From positions 1 through 40,307 of the IMG/VR virus record IMGVR_UViG_3300032233_001004: a DNA stretch of 40,307 nucleotides. One strand, given 5' to 3'. The notes beneath the pieces are model-generated. The model had not been told where the DNA came from. It saw only the letters and a program-made list of their open reading frames with translations, and ran no database searches. Made by a program: the position numbers and the translations under genes. Positions 9,942 through 23,476 of the stretch are shown here, piece by piece (position 1 is the first letter of the stretch; every line of letters begins with the position of its first letter). Origin of the DNA: a virus (Duplodnaviria > Caudoviricetes).

Positions 9942-10301
9942 CTATCCGAGAAATTTCAACTTGTAGATTGTGGAATCAATGGACTGTGCAATTTCATCTA
10001 TCAGGTTTTGGATTTCGCTATCTTGCGGAAGCTCCTGTCGTTCCTGCTCAACGTACTGTTTCAAAGTTACCAGTTCCTGCAAGCTGTCAGGGTTAGGACC
10101 ATGATATGAAAGCGGGAATTGTGGAACTACTTCATAGCGGCCCATCAAAGCTTCGGTCAATTGGTCTATCAAATCGGGAAGGCCGGTGTAGAACTCGCCC
10201 AGGGCTTGATGTTCGCCGTATCGAGTTGCTTGCCAATGCAGGATATGGGTGTTTGTGGCTGCGTGTAGCAGGGTCAAAATGAAGTCGGCTACTTTATCCA
10301 T
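9942..10301 (-). CDS. Ferritin/Dps-like four-helix protein (DUF5856-like)
   Basis: HILHW...H-x-A-L-x-E-F-Y...D-x-x-x-E ferroxidase-like pattern, ending YKLKFL. Confidence 0.8.
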   Translation of the reverse strand: MDKVADFILTLLHAATNTHILHWQATRYGEHQALGEFYTGLPDLIDQLTEALMGRYEVVPQFPLSYHGPNPDSLQELVTLKQYVEQERQELPQDSEIQNLIDEIAQSIDSTIYKLKFLG

Positions 10302-11888: not shown

Positions 11889-12557
11889 TTAAAATAACAA
11901 TGTTTGCGTCTGAACTTGCCCACCATCATCATATTTTTTGCTTTCGCCTTTCGGATATGGTTCTATGGTGTATTTCAACGCTTTCAACATTGCTTGTTTT
12001 TCATATTTGTTTCCCAAGAAAAAAATATAACGATGTTTTCTCGATCTGTCTTGCAAGTAAAAATCATCGCCAAATTTTTCACGCATCCATTCTGCTCTGT
12101 TTTCCTGTCCTCTACTCATGTCAGCAATTGTTGCACCATGTAAATGCTCCATACCTTTGATTTTCCAATCAGTGCGTTTTGCGCTTAAACCGGTATAAAT
12201 AAAATTAGTAGCTTGATAAACATAGCCAACATGCCCCTGCTCTGTATCTGCATAACTTACAACAATCAATGGCTTGGGTAACATTTGCAATGATTTTCCA
12301 ACCAACATAGAAGCCATATTTGGTTGGTTATCGCAACAAAGTCTATTTAATTCTATGACGTAATCAATGTATTCTGAGCCGCAAATTCCCATTCTTAAAG
12401 TGCTACTAGATGGAATGCCATAGGTAACAATGCCAATCAATTGTTTGTTTTTATATAACCCAAATGCATAAGAAATAGGACATATTCTTTTGGCGTAATG
12501 TTTTCGCAATAACCACGGCTCAACTTCTACAGTTTTGATCGGTAGCACTTGAAACAT
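11889..12557 (-). CDS. Mom-family DNA modification protein (GNAT fold)
   Basis: KHY, ELNRL and VSYADxxQGHxGxVYQATNFIYTG motifs as in phage Mu Mom homologues. Confidence 0.8.
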   Translation of the reverse strand: MFQVLPIKTVEVEPWLLRKHYAKRICPISYAFGLYKNKQLIGIVTYGIPSSSTLRMGICGSEYIDYVIELNRLCCDNQPNMASMLVGKSLQMLPKPLIVVSYADTEQGHVGYVYQATNFIYTGLSAKRTDWKIKGMEHLHGATIADMSRGQENRAEWMREKFGDDFYLQDRSRKHRYIFFLGNKYEKQAMLKALKYTIEPYPKGESKKYDDGGQVQTQTLLF

Positions 12558-16648: not shown

Positions 16649-16960
16649 ATGACAACGTATGCAGATGTAGAGATGGACATTGTGAGATGGGCAGAGGCTC
16701 GGAAGATCATTCCAAACAGCAACTCCCAGACTCAATTGTTAAAAGCTGTTTCTGAAATGGGTGAACTGGCAGATGCCACCATAAAACAAGATGGCCCAGG
16801 CATTGTGGACGGTGTGGGTGATGTGATGGTATGTCTCATTATTTATTGTGCTTTGCTAGACATTAACTTGGTAGATTGTATGGAATACGCATACAAAGAA
16901 ATCAAGGACCGTAAAGGCACTTTGTTGCCCAATGGGGTATTTTTAAAGAAATTGCCATGA
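16649..16960 (+). CDS. MazG-like nucleotide pyrophosphohydrolase
   Basis: SEMGELADA...DGVGDVMV metal-binding motif and AYKEIKDRKG. Confidence 0.85.
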   Translation: MTTYADVEMDIVRWAEARKIIPNSNSQTQLLKAVSEMGELADATIKQDGPGIVDGVGDVMVCLIIYCALLDINLVDCMEYAYKEIKDRKGTLLPNGVFLKKLP

Positions 16961-18335: not shown

Positions 18336-18599
18336 ATGACTTTGGAAAACCAACACTATCAGCCTAAAGCCCCTGTGATTAGGGCTCTATTAAAAGCTTT
18401 CCCGGATGGCTTGAGTGTGAATGAAATCTGTTTAAAAACAGGCATTTCTTCAAGATGCGTTTACCCAACATTAAAGAAAATGCCAGATTGCTATATAGAT
18501 AGATGGGCGGCGGGGAAATTTCGTGTGCCACCCGCAGCTATCTGGTGCGTTGTAGAAGTCCCTGAAAATTGCCCTAGACCAAGGAAACAAAAGGAATGA
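18336..18599 (+). CDS. Putative winged-HTH protein
   Basis: DGLSVNEICLKTGIS HTH-like segment and YIDRW. Confidence 0.65.
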   Translation: MTLENQHYQPKAPVIRALLKAFPDGLSVNEICLKTGISSRCVYPTLKKMPDCYIDRWAAGKFRVPPAAIWCVVEVPENCPRPRKQKE

Positions 18600-18796
18600 A
18601 TATGAAAATCAATGCCACATTTCAAGACGAAGAAGAGGCCATCAAAGCTATCCACTCAGGGTATGCTTGGCAAACTCTGCATGAGATAAACGAAATACTG
18701 CGCCAACATAGAAAACACGACTTACCTTTTGAGCAAGTCGTGTCCAAAATCCAAGCGTCTGTTCAAGACGCATTGGCTATGATCTACCCGGATTAA
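18596..18796 (+). CDS. Hypothetical protein
   Basis: 66 aa, its stop shares TTAA with the convergent gene. Confidence 0.65.
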   Translation: MNMKINATFQDEEEAIKAIHSGYAWQTLHEINEILRQHRKHDLPFEQVVSKIQASVQDALAMIYPD

Positions 18797-19032
18797 GCAG
18801 CCTCGTCTTCTTCCCAGTAGATTTCTTCGTCTTCGTCGTCTTCTGCGACCAAGAGCCATTCGCCAGTGTCTTCGTTCAACCAGTACCACGCATCGTACAG
18901 TTCGTCGTACCAGCAGTAGCACTCATAGTCTTCGTCGTAGACATACTCTTCGCCTTCTTCGAAATTTTCGAAAAACGAGTCATCGTTTTCTACTTCTGCG
19001 ACTTCACCAATATACACAAAAAAATTAAACAT
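18793..19032 (-). CDS. Hyper-acidic aromatic-rich small protein
   Basis: 79 aa with 31 D/E, 20 F/Y/W and no K/R/H, AGGAG RBS. Confidence 0.75.
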   Translation of the reverse strand: MFNFFVYIGEVAEVENDDSFFENFEEGEEYVYDEDYECYCWYDELYDAWYWLNEDTGEWLLVAEDDEDEEIYWEEDEAA

Positions 19033-19041
19033 AAGAAACTC

Positions 19042-20010
19042 CTAAAGGTTGATAACTTGTCCTCGAAACTCAACCTGCGTATCGCTCCACTTGTGAACTA
19101 ACTCAGGCCACAAAAGCTTACCACCCTTAAATGTCAGCACAGCAAACCCAGACCTGTGGTTTAATGGGTTGTCTTCTCCGTATTCAAATTGTCGCCCATA
19201 GGGTTCTGCAAGAGTACCAGTATCTACACCATAACGATTACCCGTGTAGTCAGCGAATGGAGTTACTTTAAGGCTATGCAAATGGCCTGTAACAATACTT
19301 ATGCCAGCGTTGACGGTATTGTTATGAGCTGCATGAATGCCGCTTTTGTAACGGTGTTTAATAACGCAATCAGGCGTAGGCCAGACAGACCATGCGAACT
19401 CCCAGGCTGGTAAATGGTCTTCTAATTTAAACCCATGCACTTCCCGATACTGCGGGGCTTGTACTGCTAATTTGTTAGCAAAGCGGGTGTCGTGATTGCC
19501 CCAAGTGAACAACAGTTTACAGTTGTGTCTAGCGGCTTTGGCTGTTTCTTCTATCTCGCCAAGATGTGCCTGAACCGCTTTTAGTTCTTCTATAACTGAA
19601 GGGGTCTTGGACCAGCCCAATGGATCATGTCTGCTGATAGATGCACCATCAAATGCATCCCCGTTACTGATAACGGCATGGGGCTTCAACTCTTTGATAG
19701 CCCATAACAGCCCTTTGTAAGCAGTTGTGTATTCACCGGGCCAAAAGTGGGAGTCAGAAAAAACTATGATTGTTTGATCAAGTATGCCAAGCTCAACGCG
19801 ATTAAGAGATGTTTTGATGGGCTGCATGTGGGCATACGGCCTAGCCGCCTCATGGAAATTAACAAGCGGCTGATTGGTTTCCGTTTCCAATCTTCTTCTT
19901 CGCCGATGAACAGCGCGTTCGTCCATTTCTAAAAATTCTGCTACTTTTGAAGCAGAACCTAGTTGATTCCATGCATGTATAAATTCACTATTAGAAACTT
20001 TAGCTTGCAT
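19042..20010 (-). CDS. Calcineurin-like metallophosphoesterase with N-terminal HTH-like segment
   Basis: SDSH, GDAFD, GNHD, H and GHLH motifs. Confidence 0.9.
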   Translation of the reverse strand: MQAKVSNSEFIHAWNQLGSASKVAEFLEMDERAVHRRRRRLETETNQPLVNFHEAARPYAHMQPIKTSLNRVELGILDQTIIVFSDSHFWPGEYTTAYKGLLWAIKELKPHAVISNGDAFDGASISRHDPLGWSKTPSVIEELKAVQAHLGEIEETAKAARHNCKLLFTWGNHDTRFANKLAVQAPQYREVHGFKLEDHLPAWEFAWSVWPTPDCVIKHRYKSGIHAAHNNTVNAGISIVTGHLHSLKVTPFADYTGNRYGVDTGTLAEPYGRQFEYGEDNPLNHRSGFAVLTFKGGKLLWPELVHKWSDTQVEFRGQVINL

Positions 20011-20059
20011 AAGTGACCCCGCAAAGTTGCGCGGAATCTAACACATATCTATTGCATCA

Positions 20060-20476
20060 TCATGCAATCTTTGCGCCAGCTTGAAGTTGGGCCATTGTTA
20101 AACCGCTTGTGTATTGGAAGTGTGGGTACTCTTTGAACGTCTTCCAATCACCAGCCCACTCTAAACCGCAGGACTTTCCAATCTCACCGATCTGTTTCCA
20201 AATGGCTTGATCGTCCCATACGGCCTTACCGTTAATCAATGGGACAACATCTAAGGCACATCGATGGTTATGCCAAGACTGTCCTGCTTTGGCTCTGGTC
20301 ACTATGTTGCCAGGGGTGATGCGTCCTTGAGCATATAGCGCGTTCTGGCTCTCGCTATCGCGGTAAGTAGAGGTCACCAGCAAGTCAATGCCTTTAGCCT
20401 TAGCCGCCTCTACAAAGGCTTGTGCGCGTTGTTTAACGGGCGGGGCTAGATCATCAAGGCTACGGGAATTAATCAT
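20060..20476 (-). CDS. Endolysin, M15 L-Ala-D-Glu peptidase
   Basis: YRxxxxQxxLYAQGR, SWHNHxxALD and EYPH Zn-peptidase motifs. Confidence 0.92.
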   Translation of the reverse strand: MINSRSLDDLAPPVKQRAQAFVEAAKAKGIDLLVTSTYRDSESQNALYAQGRITPGNIVTRAKAGQSWHNHRCALDVVPLINGKAVWDDQAIWKQIGEIGKSCGLEWAGDWKTFKEYPHFQYTSGLTMAQLQAGAKIA

Positions 20477-21826: not shown

Positions 21827-23476
21827 TTACCTCGCAGGGGGAGCAATTGGTAACAAAGTAGTGCGGTTAATAGGCTGCGTAGAACCAATTGCCGGTTTTA
21901 TAAAGCGTGAACTATTGTACTCAGGGAACGATGACAATTTAGACAAGTATTGTTCCCTAGCCACATTGAATTCATCGGGAGACATAGTTTTACGCATATT
22001 TGCTAAAACATCTCTTACACCAGAACGATTAAGAACCTCAGTATATGGATTTTCGTTAAATAATTTTCCTGATTGCAAAGTGCTTCCTGTTAATGCGGCA
22101 GCAGCAGTGCCGACATAAGGAATAGCGCCTACACCTATATCAAAAGCCGTTTCCATCAAAGGACCTGCATTCCCTGTACGGGCAGAATTAGTAAAAGCAT
22201 TAGCAACATCAGACATCGCCATAATTGCTCCAGCAACACCCGCAACTTTTGCACCTTTCATGGCAATGCCTTTGGTATTTTCTTGCAAAGGCAATCCAAG
22301 AGATTTACGCAATGCCCGATCTGCTGGTGGTCCCATGCGTTGTTCGGCATTGTATTTGTTCATAAAGTCCACAGCTTCATTGTGTGAGCCAAATGGCCCA
22401 CCATGTAATTGGACTGCTGCTTTGTAGCCTTCTGGCGTTTCAAGATTGCGAATAGTATTTGTGCCTGGGCCTACCCCTGGAACAAATGCATATCCCGCAG
22501 GAACTTCTTTCACGCTTGCAAATTCTTTAGGCATCCGTTGGTATTGCTTGCCTTCACCAGCATAAGCGGGTAATCCTGCTCCGGTTCTGAGTTCACCAGT
22601 AGGAGACACAGGTGCTGCTGTAGGCACAACAGGGGCTGTAGTAGCTGCTAATGCTGCGGGTGGTGTAGGCACTACAGGTCTACGAGGGCCAGTAAATTCA
22701 GGTGGGCCTACAGGCTGCGTTGGGCCAACAAATTCACCTGTTGCAGGTATGCCAGCAGCGACTTTAGCTTTTAATTCTTCAAGCTTGGTGTTGACAGGTG
22801 CAGCAGGCGCAGTAGTAACAGCGGGCGTAGCAGGTGCAGTAGCATCACCCAAAAAATTGCCAAAAGAAGGATCACTATGAATGTCCCAATTTTGAATCGG
22901 TGATGCTGATGGTGTAACTACTGGTGCTGGTGGCGTAACGCGAGGGCCAGAACCGCCTACAAATGGTTGTGGTTGGGCAGAACTAGCGGACATCTTGGAA
23001 CCAAGCGTGTCAAACAAGCCTAGTTTGTTAGCTCCATATGCCAATGGAATAGCAGCCAATGCGCCTGTTAATTCTGGGTTATTGGCAACAGCATTACGAG
23101 CATAGTCCAATGAATCTTGAACAAAGTTACTACCAGCAGTGGCAACATTTTGACCAACAGCACCTACTCGCTGTTCAGGTGGCGTTCCCATTCCTGACGG
23201 TACTGTTTTTCCGGTAAACAAATCTGCCGCAGTAGTTCCTGCTGGTACTGTTGGAACAGATAGGCTTGATGTTGCAGGAGAAGCAACAGATGCGGCAGGG
23301 GCGGGTTGAGTTGTTGCAACAGGTTCAGCAGCTACTTTTGTAGAATTTAAAGTGTCTTTACGTTCTGCTGCTCTATCATCTTTCATCATAGTATCAGCTT
23401 CTGATTCAATTTCAGATTCTGTAAAAGCGCCAGATGCCCTTAGTTTGTTTACCAAAGTTTGTCTATCAAGTGCCAT
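21827..23476 (-). CDS. Putative ejection / internal virion protein
   Basis: 549 aa, P/A/T-rich linkers and Gly/Ala hydrophobic segments, located after the tail genes. Confidence 0.55.
   Translation of the reverse strand: MALDRQTLVNKLRASGAFTESEIESEADTMMKDDRAAERKDTLNSTKVAAEPVATTQPAPAASVASPATSSLSVPTVPAGTTAADLFTGKTVPSGMGTPPEQRVGAVGQNVATAGSNFVQDSLDYARNAVANNPELTGALAAIPLAYGANKLGLFDTLGSKMSASSAQPQPFVGGSGPRVTPPAPVVTPSASPIQNWDIHSDPSFGNFLGDATAPATPAVTTAPAAPVNTKLEELKAKVAAGIPATGEFVGPTQPVGPPEFTGPRRPVVPTPPAALAATTAPVVPTAAPVSPTGELRTGAGLPAYAGEGKQYQRMPKEFASVKEVPAGYAFVPGVGPGTNTIRNLETPEGYKAAVQLHGGPFGSHNEAVDFMNKYNAEQRMGPPADRALRKSLGLPLQENTKGIAMKGAKVAGVAGAIMAMSDVANAFTNSARTGNAGPLMETAFDIGVGAIPYVGTAAAALTGSTLQSGKLFNENPYTEVLNRSGVRDVLANMRKTMSPDEFNVAREQYLSKLSSFPEYNSSRFIKPAIGSTQPINRTTLLPIAPPAR

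Follow-up and report, generated by a model that had tools for sequence, protein, structure and literature searches.

The window analysed here, 40,307 nucleotides in length, is a complete linear phage record of 40.3 kb (CheckV 100%) and encodes a portal, terminase, capsid, primase/helicase, Sak, SSB, MazG, and a lysis cassette. Its minus-strand arm runs in the order holin, M15 endolysin, HTH-metallophosphoesterase (MPE), and a gene for a hyper-acidic 79-aa protein, the last of the lysis/late arm. The acidic gene (18793..19032), to which the initial annotation had assigned no strand, is read on the minus strand from 19032 to 18793; a plus-strand reading of the same interval was rejected as a shadow frame. 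It represents a short form of its family and ends in a TTAA stop overlap with a convergent plus-strand gene. The MPE (19042..20010, minus strand; phrog_221, PF00149) is an HTH-fused calcineurin-like enzyme with all five metal-binding motifs intact and an Arg-rich HTH helix. The good ribosome-binding site and the 9-bp distance from the MPE noted initially were both recovered. The Shine-Dalgarno (SD) sequence TAGGAG (19039..19044, minus strand) includes the MPE stop codon as its TAG, so that AGGAG overlaps the stop, and 9 nt separate the MPE from the acidic-gene ATG. The overlap of SD and stop would couple translation of the acidic gene to that of the MPE.

Two terminator-like hairpins were tentatively marked just 3' of the acidic gene, within the convergent gene (18713..18771, minus strand). 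The evidence is weak, as the hairpin scan gave 5 sites against 4.5 in shuffles and is not above chance; the second hairpin is near-invariant across 8 aligned loci, yet that stretch is also coding. The convergent 66-aa gene (18596-18796, plus strand), on whose antisense strand the hairpins lie, lies tail-to-tail with the acidic gene at 21 of the 27 family loci fetched first. The window also carries a Dps/ferritin-like 'starvation-inducible' gene (9942-10301, minus strand; phrog_858), a Mom-like DNA modification gene (11889-12557, minus strand), and a MazG-like pyrophosphatase gene (16649-16960, plus strand).

A recount confirmed the composition first reported for the acidic protein: 79 residues with 31 D/E, 20 aromatics (6 F, 9 Y, and 5 W) and no K, R or H, which corresponds to a net charge of -31 and 39% carboxylate residues. 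Of 355 window ORFs with at least 35 aa, none is as acidic as this one (net charge per residue -0.39; runner-up -0.14). The 10-residue periodicity claimed for its core also held, the BLOSUM self-score of residues 29-62 peaking at lag 10 (p=0.005 for the maximum across lags 5-15, tested with 20,000 shuffles), with p=0.03 when aromatics alone were tested. A protein search yielded 40 candidates, 39 of which are homologues, and 27 viral loci were retrieved. Together with the window they contain 22 distinct 39-codon cores, in which the in-frame pN/pS was 0.18 with no stops (0/22), while the other five frames gave pN/pS values of 0.30-2.5 and stops in 3-22 of the 22. The gene is therefore real and coding, as initially supposed, since its core is constrained and free of in-frame stops and the other frames are broken or unconstrained.

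The AlphaFold2 model (37 sequences) has a mean pLDDT of 65, with disordered flanks (pLDDT <50), and half of the chain is predicted to be disordered. The conserved core, residues 24-62 (18847..18963, minus strand), is predicted to form a four-strand aromatic beta-meander with strands at 30-33, 38-43, 48-53, and 58-62 (pLDDT about 80) and contains invariant W, Y and C residues. From the alternation along the strands, the model suggests a single sheet whose two faces both carry aromatics. The variable N-terminal segment (18964..19032, minus strand), which consists of one hydrophobic strand and an acidic linker, is exchanged among near-identical phages and may be a relic of the beta-beta-alpha domain of the long forms.

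The acidic protein had no match in Pfam, PHROGs, PADLOC, or NCBIfam, and 40 family members compared with the family libraries gave scattered weak rows only. PDB fold searches with two models returned nothing at E<0.001 (best Z 3.4 with rmsd 6.4 over 72 aligned positions, and 3.6 with rmsd 2.9 over 43); Ugi was the top Foldseek row at E=1.6. Sequence searches of solved structures gave nothing significant, BFVD only uncharacterised proteins of uncultured phages, and the ESM Atlas only unnamed viral clusters (0.84 and 0.75). A profile search of 1.84 billion representatives produced 13 matches; 12 belong to the family, and the other is a 741-aa protein (E=4.9e-4). No match was obtained by tblastn in 50,697 phage records with the low-complexity filter on, and in cellular genomes the core profile matched none of 416 pattern stretches. 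The OCRE/beta-meander likeness drawn in the initial annotation stood as far as the predicted four-strand meander is concerned; no Pfam match to OCRE (PF17780) was found for the protein itself, and weak scores occurred in two of nine relatives, the best at 21 bits against a cut-off of 24.7. Two other candidates were rejected. Choline-binding repeats gave only 4cnl (E=0.27 over 14 residues) and no Pfam match, and an SSB-tail reading conflicts with the C-terminus EEDEAA, compared with DDLDDFF in the window SSB, and with the folded and conserved core. No paper on the family was found by title or abstract start; subscription journals and supplements, whose tables may bear on novelty, lay outside the scope of that search. 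Only two cellular records were found: a 2.5-kb contig from a Ca. Methylopumilus MAG encodes the MPE together with a family gene, and a Fluviibacter MAG encodes the MPE without one. They are weak evidence that phages with the family probably infect Betaproteobacteria.

The family is widespread, with several hundred loci, and unnamed in the libraries searched. Two subfamily queries matched 427 and 141 viral contigs, of which the best 80 each were kept. In total, 225 distinct proteins of 61-148 aa contain 31-48% D/E, so the acidic pattern is kept by homologues as expected. The absence of K, R and H holds for the window protein and does not extend to the family, whose members have a median of two K+R; nevertheless, both residues are depleted family-wide relative to a codon-position base model (K 1.9% vs 4.1%, R 0.5% vs 1.7%). 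In other phages, the slot adjacent to the MPE holds other hyper-acidic ORFs, in which a predicted beta-beta-alpha domain precedes four, three, two or zero aromatic strands. Among the 80 closest MPE loci, 21 have an acidic protein without the meander (a contig end truncates one of them), contrary to the view that aromatics are essential as base mimics. Chimeras such as L403 combine beta-beta-alpha and meander modules, phages with 98-99% identical MPEs carry different N-terminal segments, and linker and tail lengths vary freely. Since the slot can equally be taken by meander-less members, acidity is the invariant of the family and the aromatics are one exchangeable module. Frame changes, which may be assembly errors, were seen in the acidic-gene tails of L300, L301, and L302 and in the MPE of L175 and L243.

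The neighbourhood was described from 255 family-anchored loci pooled from overlapping queries (189 distinct C-termini; two queries contributed the best 80 of 427 and of 141 matches). Of these, 246 have an MPE (in whichever orientation) or an HNH gene no more than 1 kb away: 67 with the MPE on the same strand, 115 with the MPE tail-to-tail, 63 with HNH (phrog_3106/2255), and one with both. The remaining nine comprise eight loci cut by contig ends and one filter miss that does have HNH, so none is free of both partners. The HNH context belongs to another phage group with genomes of about 60 kb, in which the cassette is located downstream of the terminator of the capsid gene. No MPE was found in three complete or near-complete genomes of this context, with positive controls run, and the HNH of that context was absent from four complete MPE-context genomes. 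Among 80 capsid-anchored loci, the downstream DNA was long enough in 61 (six with acidic gene and HNH, one with HNH only, 54 with neither); the acidic gene thus follows the capsid at 6/7 HNH loci and 0/54 HNH-free loci (p=1.3e-7, the lineages not being independent). Acidic proteins 94% (87/93) and 88% identical adjoin unrelated partners in the two unrelated phage groups. Both partners, MPE and HNH, have very strongly basic N-terminal helices.

Each partner also occurs without the acidic gene. This was observed for the MPE at 22 of 80 more distant MPE loci and in four complete phages with 40-58% identical MPEs (control 4/4), and for HNH at 21 of 80 HNH loci by script, at least one of which (L469) is a missed positive. 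The two-gene unit proposed initially is therefore borne out as a link seen in many phages and not as an obligate one, because complete HNH-context phages lack the MPE and MPEs occur alone; pairing with the MPE is frequent, neither obligate nor cognate. A 1.2-kb contig (L521:1-1243) carries MPE, acidic gene, and convergent HNH together, with an acidic gene resembling a hybrid of both contexts, and may be a true recombinant or an assembly chimera. In the L351-L430 loci, the region directly 3' of the major capsid gene is a hot spot of free-standing nucleases; in addition to the HNH/acidic cassette, ORFs resembling GIY-YIG or other HNH endonucleases occur at several of these loci. Most MPE loci without an acidic gene have a 120-aa gene coupled directly upstream of the MPE (e.g., L102:2619-2993 and L106:1628-1987), which in that clade stands where a separate promoter would be and presumably ends in an HExxH-like stretch. 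In the clade of L105 and L111-L131, the gene coupled upstream of the MPE (L105:1522-1944) is presumably an acetyltransferase, and no pho-like site lies directly before the MPE.

The main clue, missed in the initial annotation, is a promoter signal of phosphate-starvation type. Free-standing family genes are preceded by TGTCAY, 10-11 nt, and TAnnAT, followed by a 5' hairpin and an SD sequence. TGTCAY with 9-11 nt and TAnnWT was present in 73 of 121 distinct upstream regions, against 0.19 in shuffles, and the canonical 15-17 nt spacing in none (0/121). Among the 118 scored promoters (122 regions minus four without a -10 to anchor), the half-site was a perfect YTGTCAY in 71 and matched at six or more of seven positions in 79, with a 10-nt spacer in 65 of those 79. 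The 5' hairpin was more stable than shuffles in 99/109 genes. PhoB has the consensus CTGTCAT, which overlaps the -35 region (PMC3511308), and most pho boxes are described as having two tandem half-sites (PMC3511308, PMC3978041). A second tandem half-site at an 11-bp offset was found in one of the 79 acidic-gene promoters; a degenerate upstream TCAY, partly confounded by coding, occurs only in some MPE promoters.

Host pstS promoters were used as a control (n=25: 23 pstS loci over the cut-off in 41 genomes of the order of G019, and two pstS-like loci under the cut-off in G019). The half-site was present in 24/25 upstream regions, and the half-site with 10/11 nt and TAnnnT in 9/25, against 0.32 in shuffles; one of these sites shares its -10, TAGGAT, with phage genes. 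A second half-site accompanies eight of the nine flagged host sites, unlike the phage acidic-gene promoters. Degenerate proximal sites (CTGCAAC, TCGCAAT) are common at host pstS, although this fit arises partly by construction. The phage layout, with a half-site overlapping the -35 and lying 10 nt before the -10, matches host pstS promoters. Of three Pho-regulon sequence features, the half-site and the -35/-10 layout were thus found and tandem half-sites were not.

In five phage genomes and the window, such sites were no commoner than in shuffles. The six followed by an SD sequence and an ORF precede the acidic gene (three), the MPE (two), and a window lysis gene (one); G004, scanned over 39,700 of its 40,349 nt, had no such promoter site. 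The lysis-gene site, a perfect TTGTCAT with 11 nt and TACAAT before the first gene of the cassette (21903-21936, minus strand), is likely due to chance, since it was not found in six relatives. A scoring matrix was trained on pstS sites from the order of G019, taken as a putative host group. Scores above the 95% shuffle level, to which the -10 alone contributes a part, were obtained for 79/85 MPE-convergent acidic promoters and 15/34 HNH-context ones. For MPE promoters, they were obtained in 32/56 of the window clade and 18/25 other convergent cases, and in none of 20 other coupled MPEs or 23 MPEs without an acidic gene. All these promoter counts overstate independence because the sequences are related.

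In the window clade, the signal lies inside the 3' end of the MPE gene. The predicted internal promoter of the acidic gene (19115..19137, minus strand) consists of CTGACAT (19137-19131), 10 nt, and the -10 TAAGCT (19120-19115), 88 nt upstream of the ATG. With the host pstS-trained matrix, none of the 80,546 window positions scores higher, and the top score is shared. A generic sigma-70 scan gave no promoter for the acidic gene. YTGACAT with 10 nt and TAnnnT is present in 58/58 distinct window-clade segments and elsewhere in 3/26 convergent, 0/21 other coupled, and 0/22 acid-free MPE segments. At this signal, Thr is encoded by ACA in 58/58 (background 240/959) and Leu by CTG/TTG in 58/58. The -10 is TAGGAT in 33 segments, as in free-standing promoters, TAAGCT in 24, and TAGGCT in one, and it is retained while the MPE protein switches from Lys-Leu to Arg-Ile. 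The codon pattern indicates that the signal is maintained by codon choice in this clade. The window half-site matches at 6/7 positions and also reads as an inverted TGTCA; because of the mismatch and this second reading, it could serve a different OmpR-type regulator or an activator from the phage. The predicted MPE promoter (20018..20068, minus strand) has a degenerate half-site conserved across the clade, ATGCAAT (20057-20051), followed by 10 nt, the -10 TAGATT (20040-20035), and a 5' hairpin, and ranks 42 of 80,546 positions.

The acidic gene is probably under host PhoB control, and by its sequence signals the MPE (phrog_221) is likely a phosphate-starvation gene. Points against PhoB are the missing second half-site, the mismatch at the window site, the coupled MPE clade (0/20), the HNH-context promoters (15/34), the missing site in G004, and the lack of any phoH match above the cut-off in five genomes. 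On composition, polyanion or nucleic-acid mimicry, as proposed initially, remains the most economical biochemical reading. The general polyanion version follows from 39% carboxylate, avoidance of Lys and Arg, free linker length, and swapped folded modules, and the promoter signal points to nutrient stress rather than to constitutive counter-defence. We tentatively favour a polyanion free of phosphorus that is induced by phosphate starvation and targets basic nucleic-acid-binding proteins. On this view, the MPE and acidic genes would both be activated during phosphate starvation by host PhoB, or by a related activator of the OmpR type, and the acidic protein would replace DNA, RNA or polyphosphate in the basic grooves of proteins that bind nucleic acids. 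Its carboxylate tracts would bind, with the aromatic meander or the beta-beta-alpha domain adding affinity or target preference. Basic host proteins (nucleoid, ribosomal, and nuclease surfaces) would be stripped or occupied and, with the co-regulated MPE, host nucleic-acid phosphorus would be freed for phage DNA; alternatively, host enzymes induced by starvation would be denied access to phage DNA. The HNH neighbour would be a mobile carrier and not the target.

Two rivals share this chemistry and differ in target and timing. According to the first, the protein is an anti-defence DNA mimic of the Ocr/Arn/anti-CRISPR type, made early and abundantly from a self-contained cassette against restriction, CRISPR and other systems. 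Its small size and acidity, its own promoter, 5' hairpin and strong SD sequence, the swapping of N-terminal segments among phages with near-identical MPEs, and the 94% identical proteins in unrelated groups would suit such a role. Nevertheless, it appears rather unlikely: canonical -35 spacing is lacking and the promoter looks activator-dependent, the gene occupies the last position of the lysis arm or follows the capsid gene, and the family libraries gave no match to known mimics. Shape-matched mimics, moreover, are not known to show the free variation in linker and tail length of this family. A mycobacteriophage metallophosphoesterase reported to be an anti-defence DNase (PMC12287305) speaks for the anti-defence role.

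According to the second, the protein inhibits or buffers the neighbouring phage nuclease, MPE or HNH, as a self-protecting counterpart of acidic nuclease-immunity proteins. The presence of one partner within 1 kb at 246/255 loci, the association with HNH after the capsid gene in lineages that are not independent, the very basic N-terminal helices of both partners, and the coupling that fixes stoichiometry in the window clade argue for it. However, the partners have unrelated folds, yet near-identical acidic proteins adjoin either, and both occur alone (22/80 MPE; 21/80 HNH by script, including at least one missed positive). Hitchhiking with mobile HNH genes and local inversion at the operon junction account for the adjacency, and just two independent neighbourhoods are represented. 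This inhibitor role is unlikely.

An OCRE-like peptide adaptor, with the acidic aromatic sheet recognising Pro/Arg-rich peptides from one particular protein of host or phage, is improbable. It would agree with the single sheet bearing aromatics on both faces, the invariant W, Y and C, the weak OCRE scores in relatives, and the negatively charged OCRE domain of RBM5, which binds an Arg-flanked polyproline helix (PMC5127646); however, the period is 10 and not 8, scores stay under the Pfam cut-off, and the same slot is filled by members without a meander (21/80). A cation sponge or polyphosphate substitute binding Mg, Ca, Fe or polyamines freed in phosphate starvation, with no protein target, draws on the same promoter evidence as the favoured polyanion and on the conservation of charge rather than sequence in long variable acidic tracts, but is hardly probable, as plain chelation does not need conserved folded modules with invariant Trp/Tyr.

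The starvation-induced polyanion can be extended to a broader and more doubtful picture, in which freshwater phages would carry a mobile mini Pho regulon with a phosphorus-free nucleic-acid substitute as its payload. In the phosphate-starved host, the PhoB-induced polyanion would strip basic proteins from host RNA and DNA, or feed back on PhoB, the phage would harvest phosphorus, and the promoter would matter enough to be written into MPE codons. Phosphorus limits phage production in lakes, and the family is a common candidate for coping with this in small phages that lack both pstS and phoH. If the polyanion reading is true, nucleic-acid mimicry extends from immunity to nutrient economy, and the promoter signal offers a route to starvation-responsive genes among phage hypotheticals.

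Among known systems, acidic nuclease-immunity proteins (colicin Im, NuiA, and barstar) are likewise encoded by a small acidic gene beside a nuclease gene, as cognate and obligate pairs. In the present family, the partners vary and often occur without the acidic gene, and near-identical acidic proteins adjoin unrelated ones. Gp48 of mycobacteriophage A10ZJ24 is, like the window MPE, a phage calcineurin-like phosphoesterase with five motifs; it is reported to be an early, toxic anti-defence DNase, and the parts of that report used here mention no acidic partner (PMC12287305). The OCRE domain (RBM5, PF17780) shares acidity, aromatic residues, and a single antiparallel sheet of short repeats, which is predicted here, but has five octamers and six strands (PMC5127646), in contrast to three 10-residue repeats and four predicted strands in a stand-alone phage protein below the Pfam cut-off. 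Phage DNA mimics (Ocr, Arn, Ugi, p56, SAUGI, and acidic anti-CRISPRs) are also small and strongly acidic and compete with DNA through carboxylates (PMC3902945). The acidic protein may be likened to them by composition only, as the family shows no sequence or significant fold match, is half disordered, has exchangeable modules, and has a promoter of starvation-type appearance. Cyanophage pstS, mazG, hli2, and gp43 are under host PhoBR control (PMC10976474), and the window phage has mazG too; here, however, the candidates in small phages are the genes of an HTH-phosphoesterase and of an uncharacterised polyanionic protein, mostly with one half-site. Acidic mimics and host-regulated phage starvation genes are known kinds, and the PhoB-type half-site signal on the genes of this family is new.
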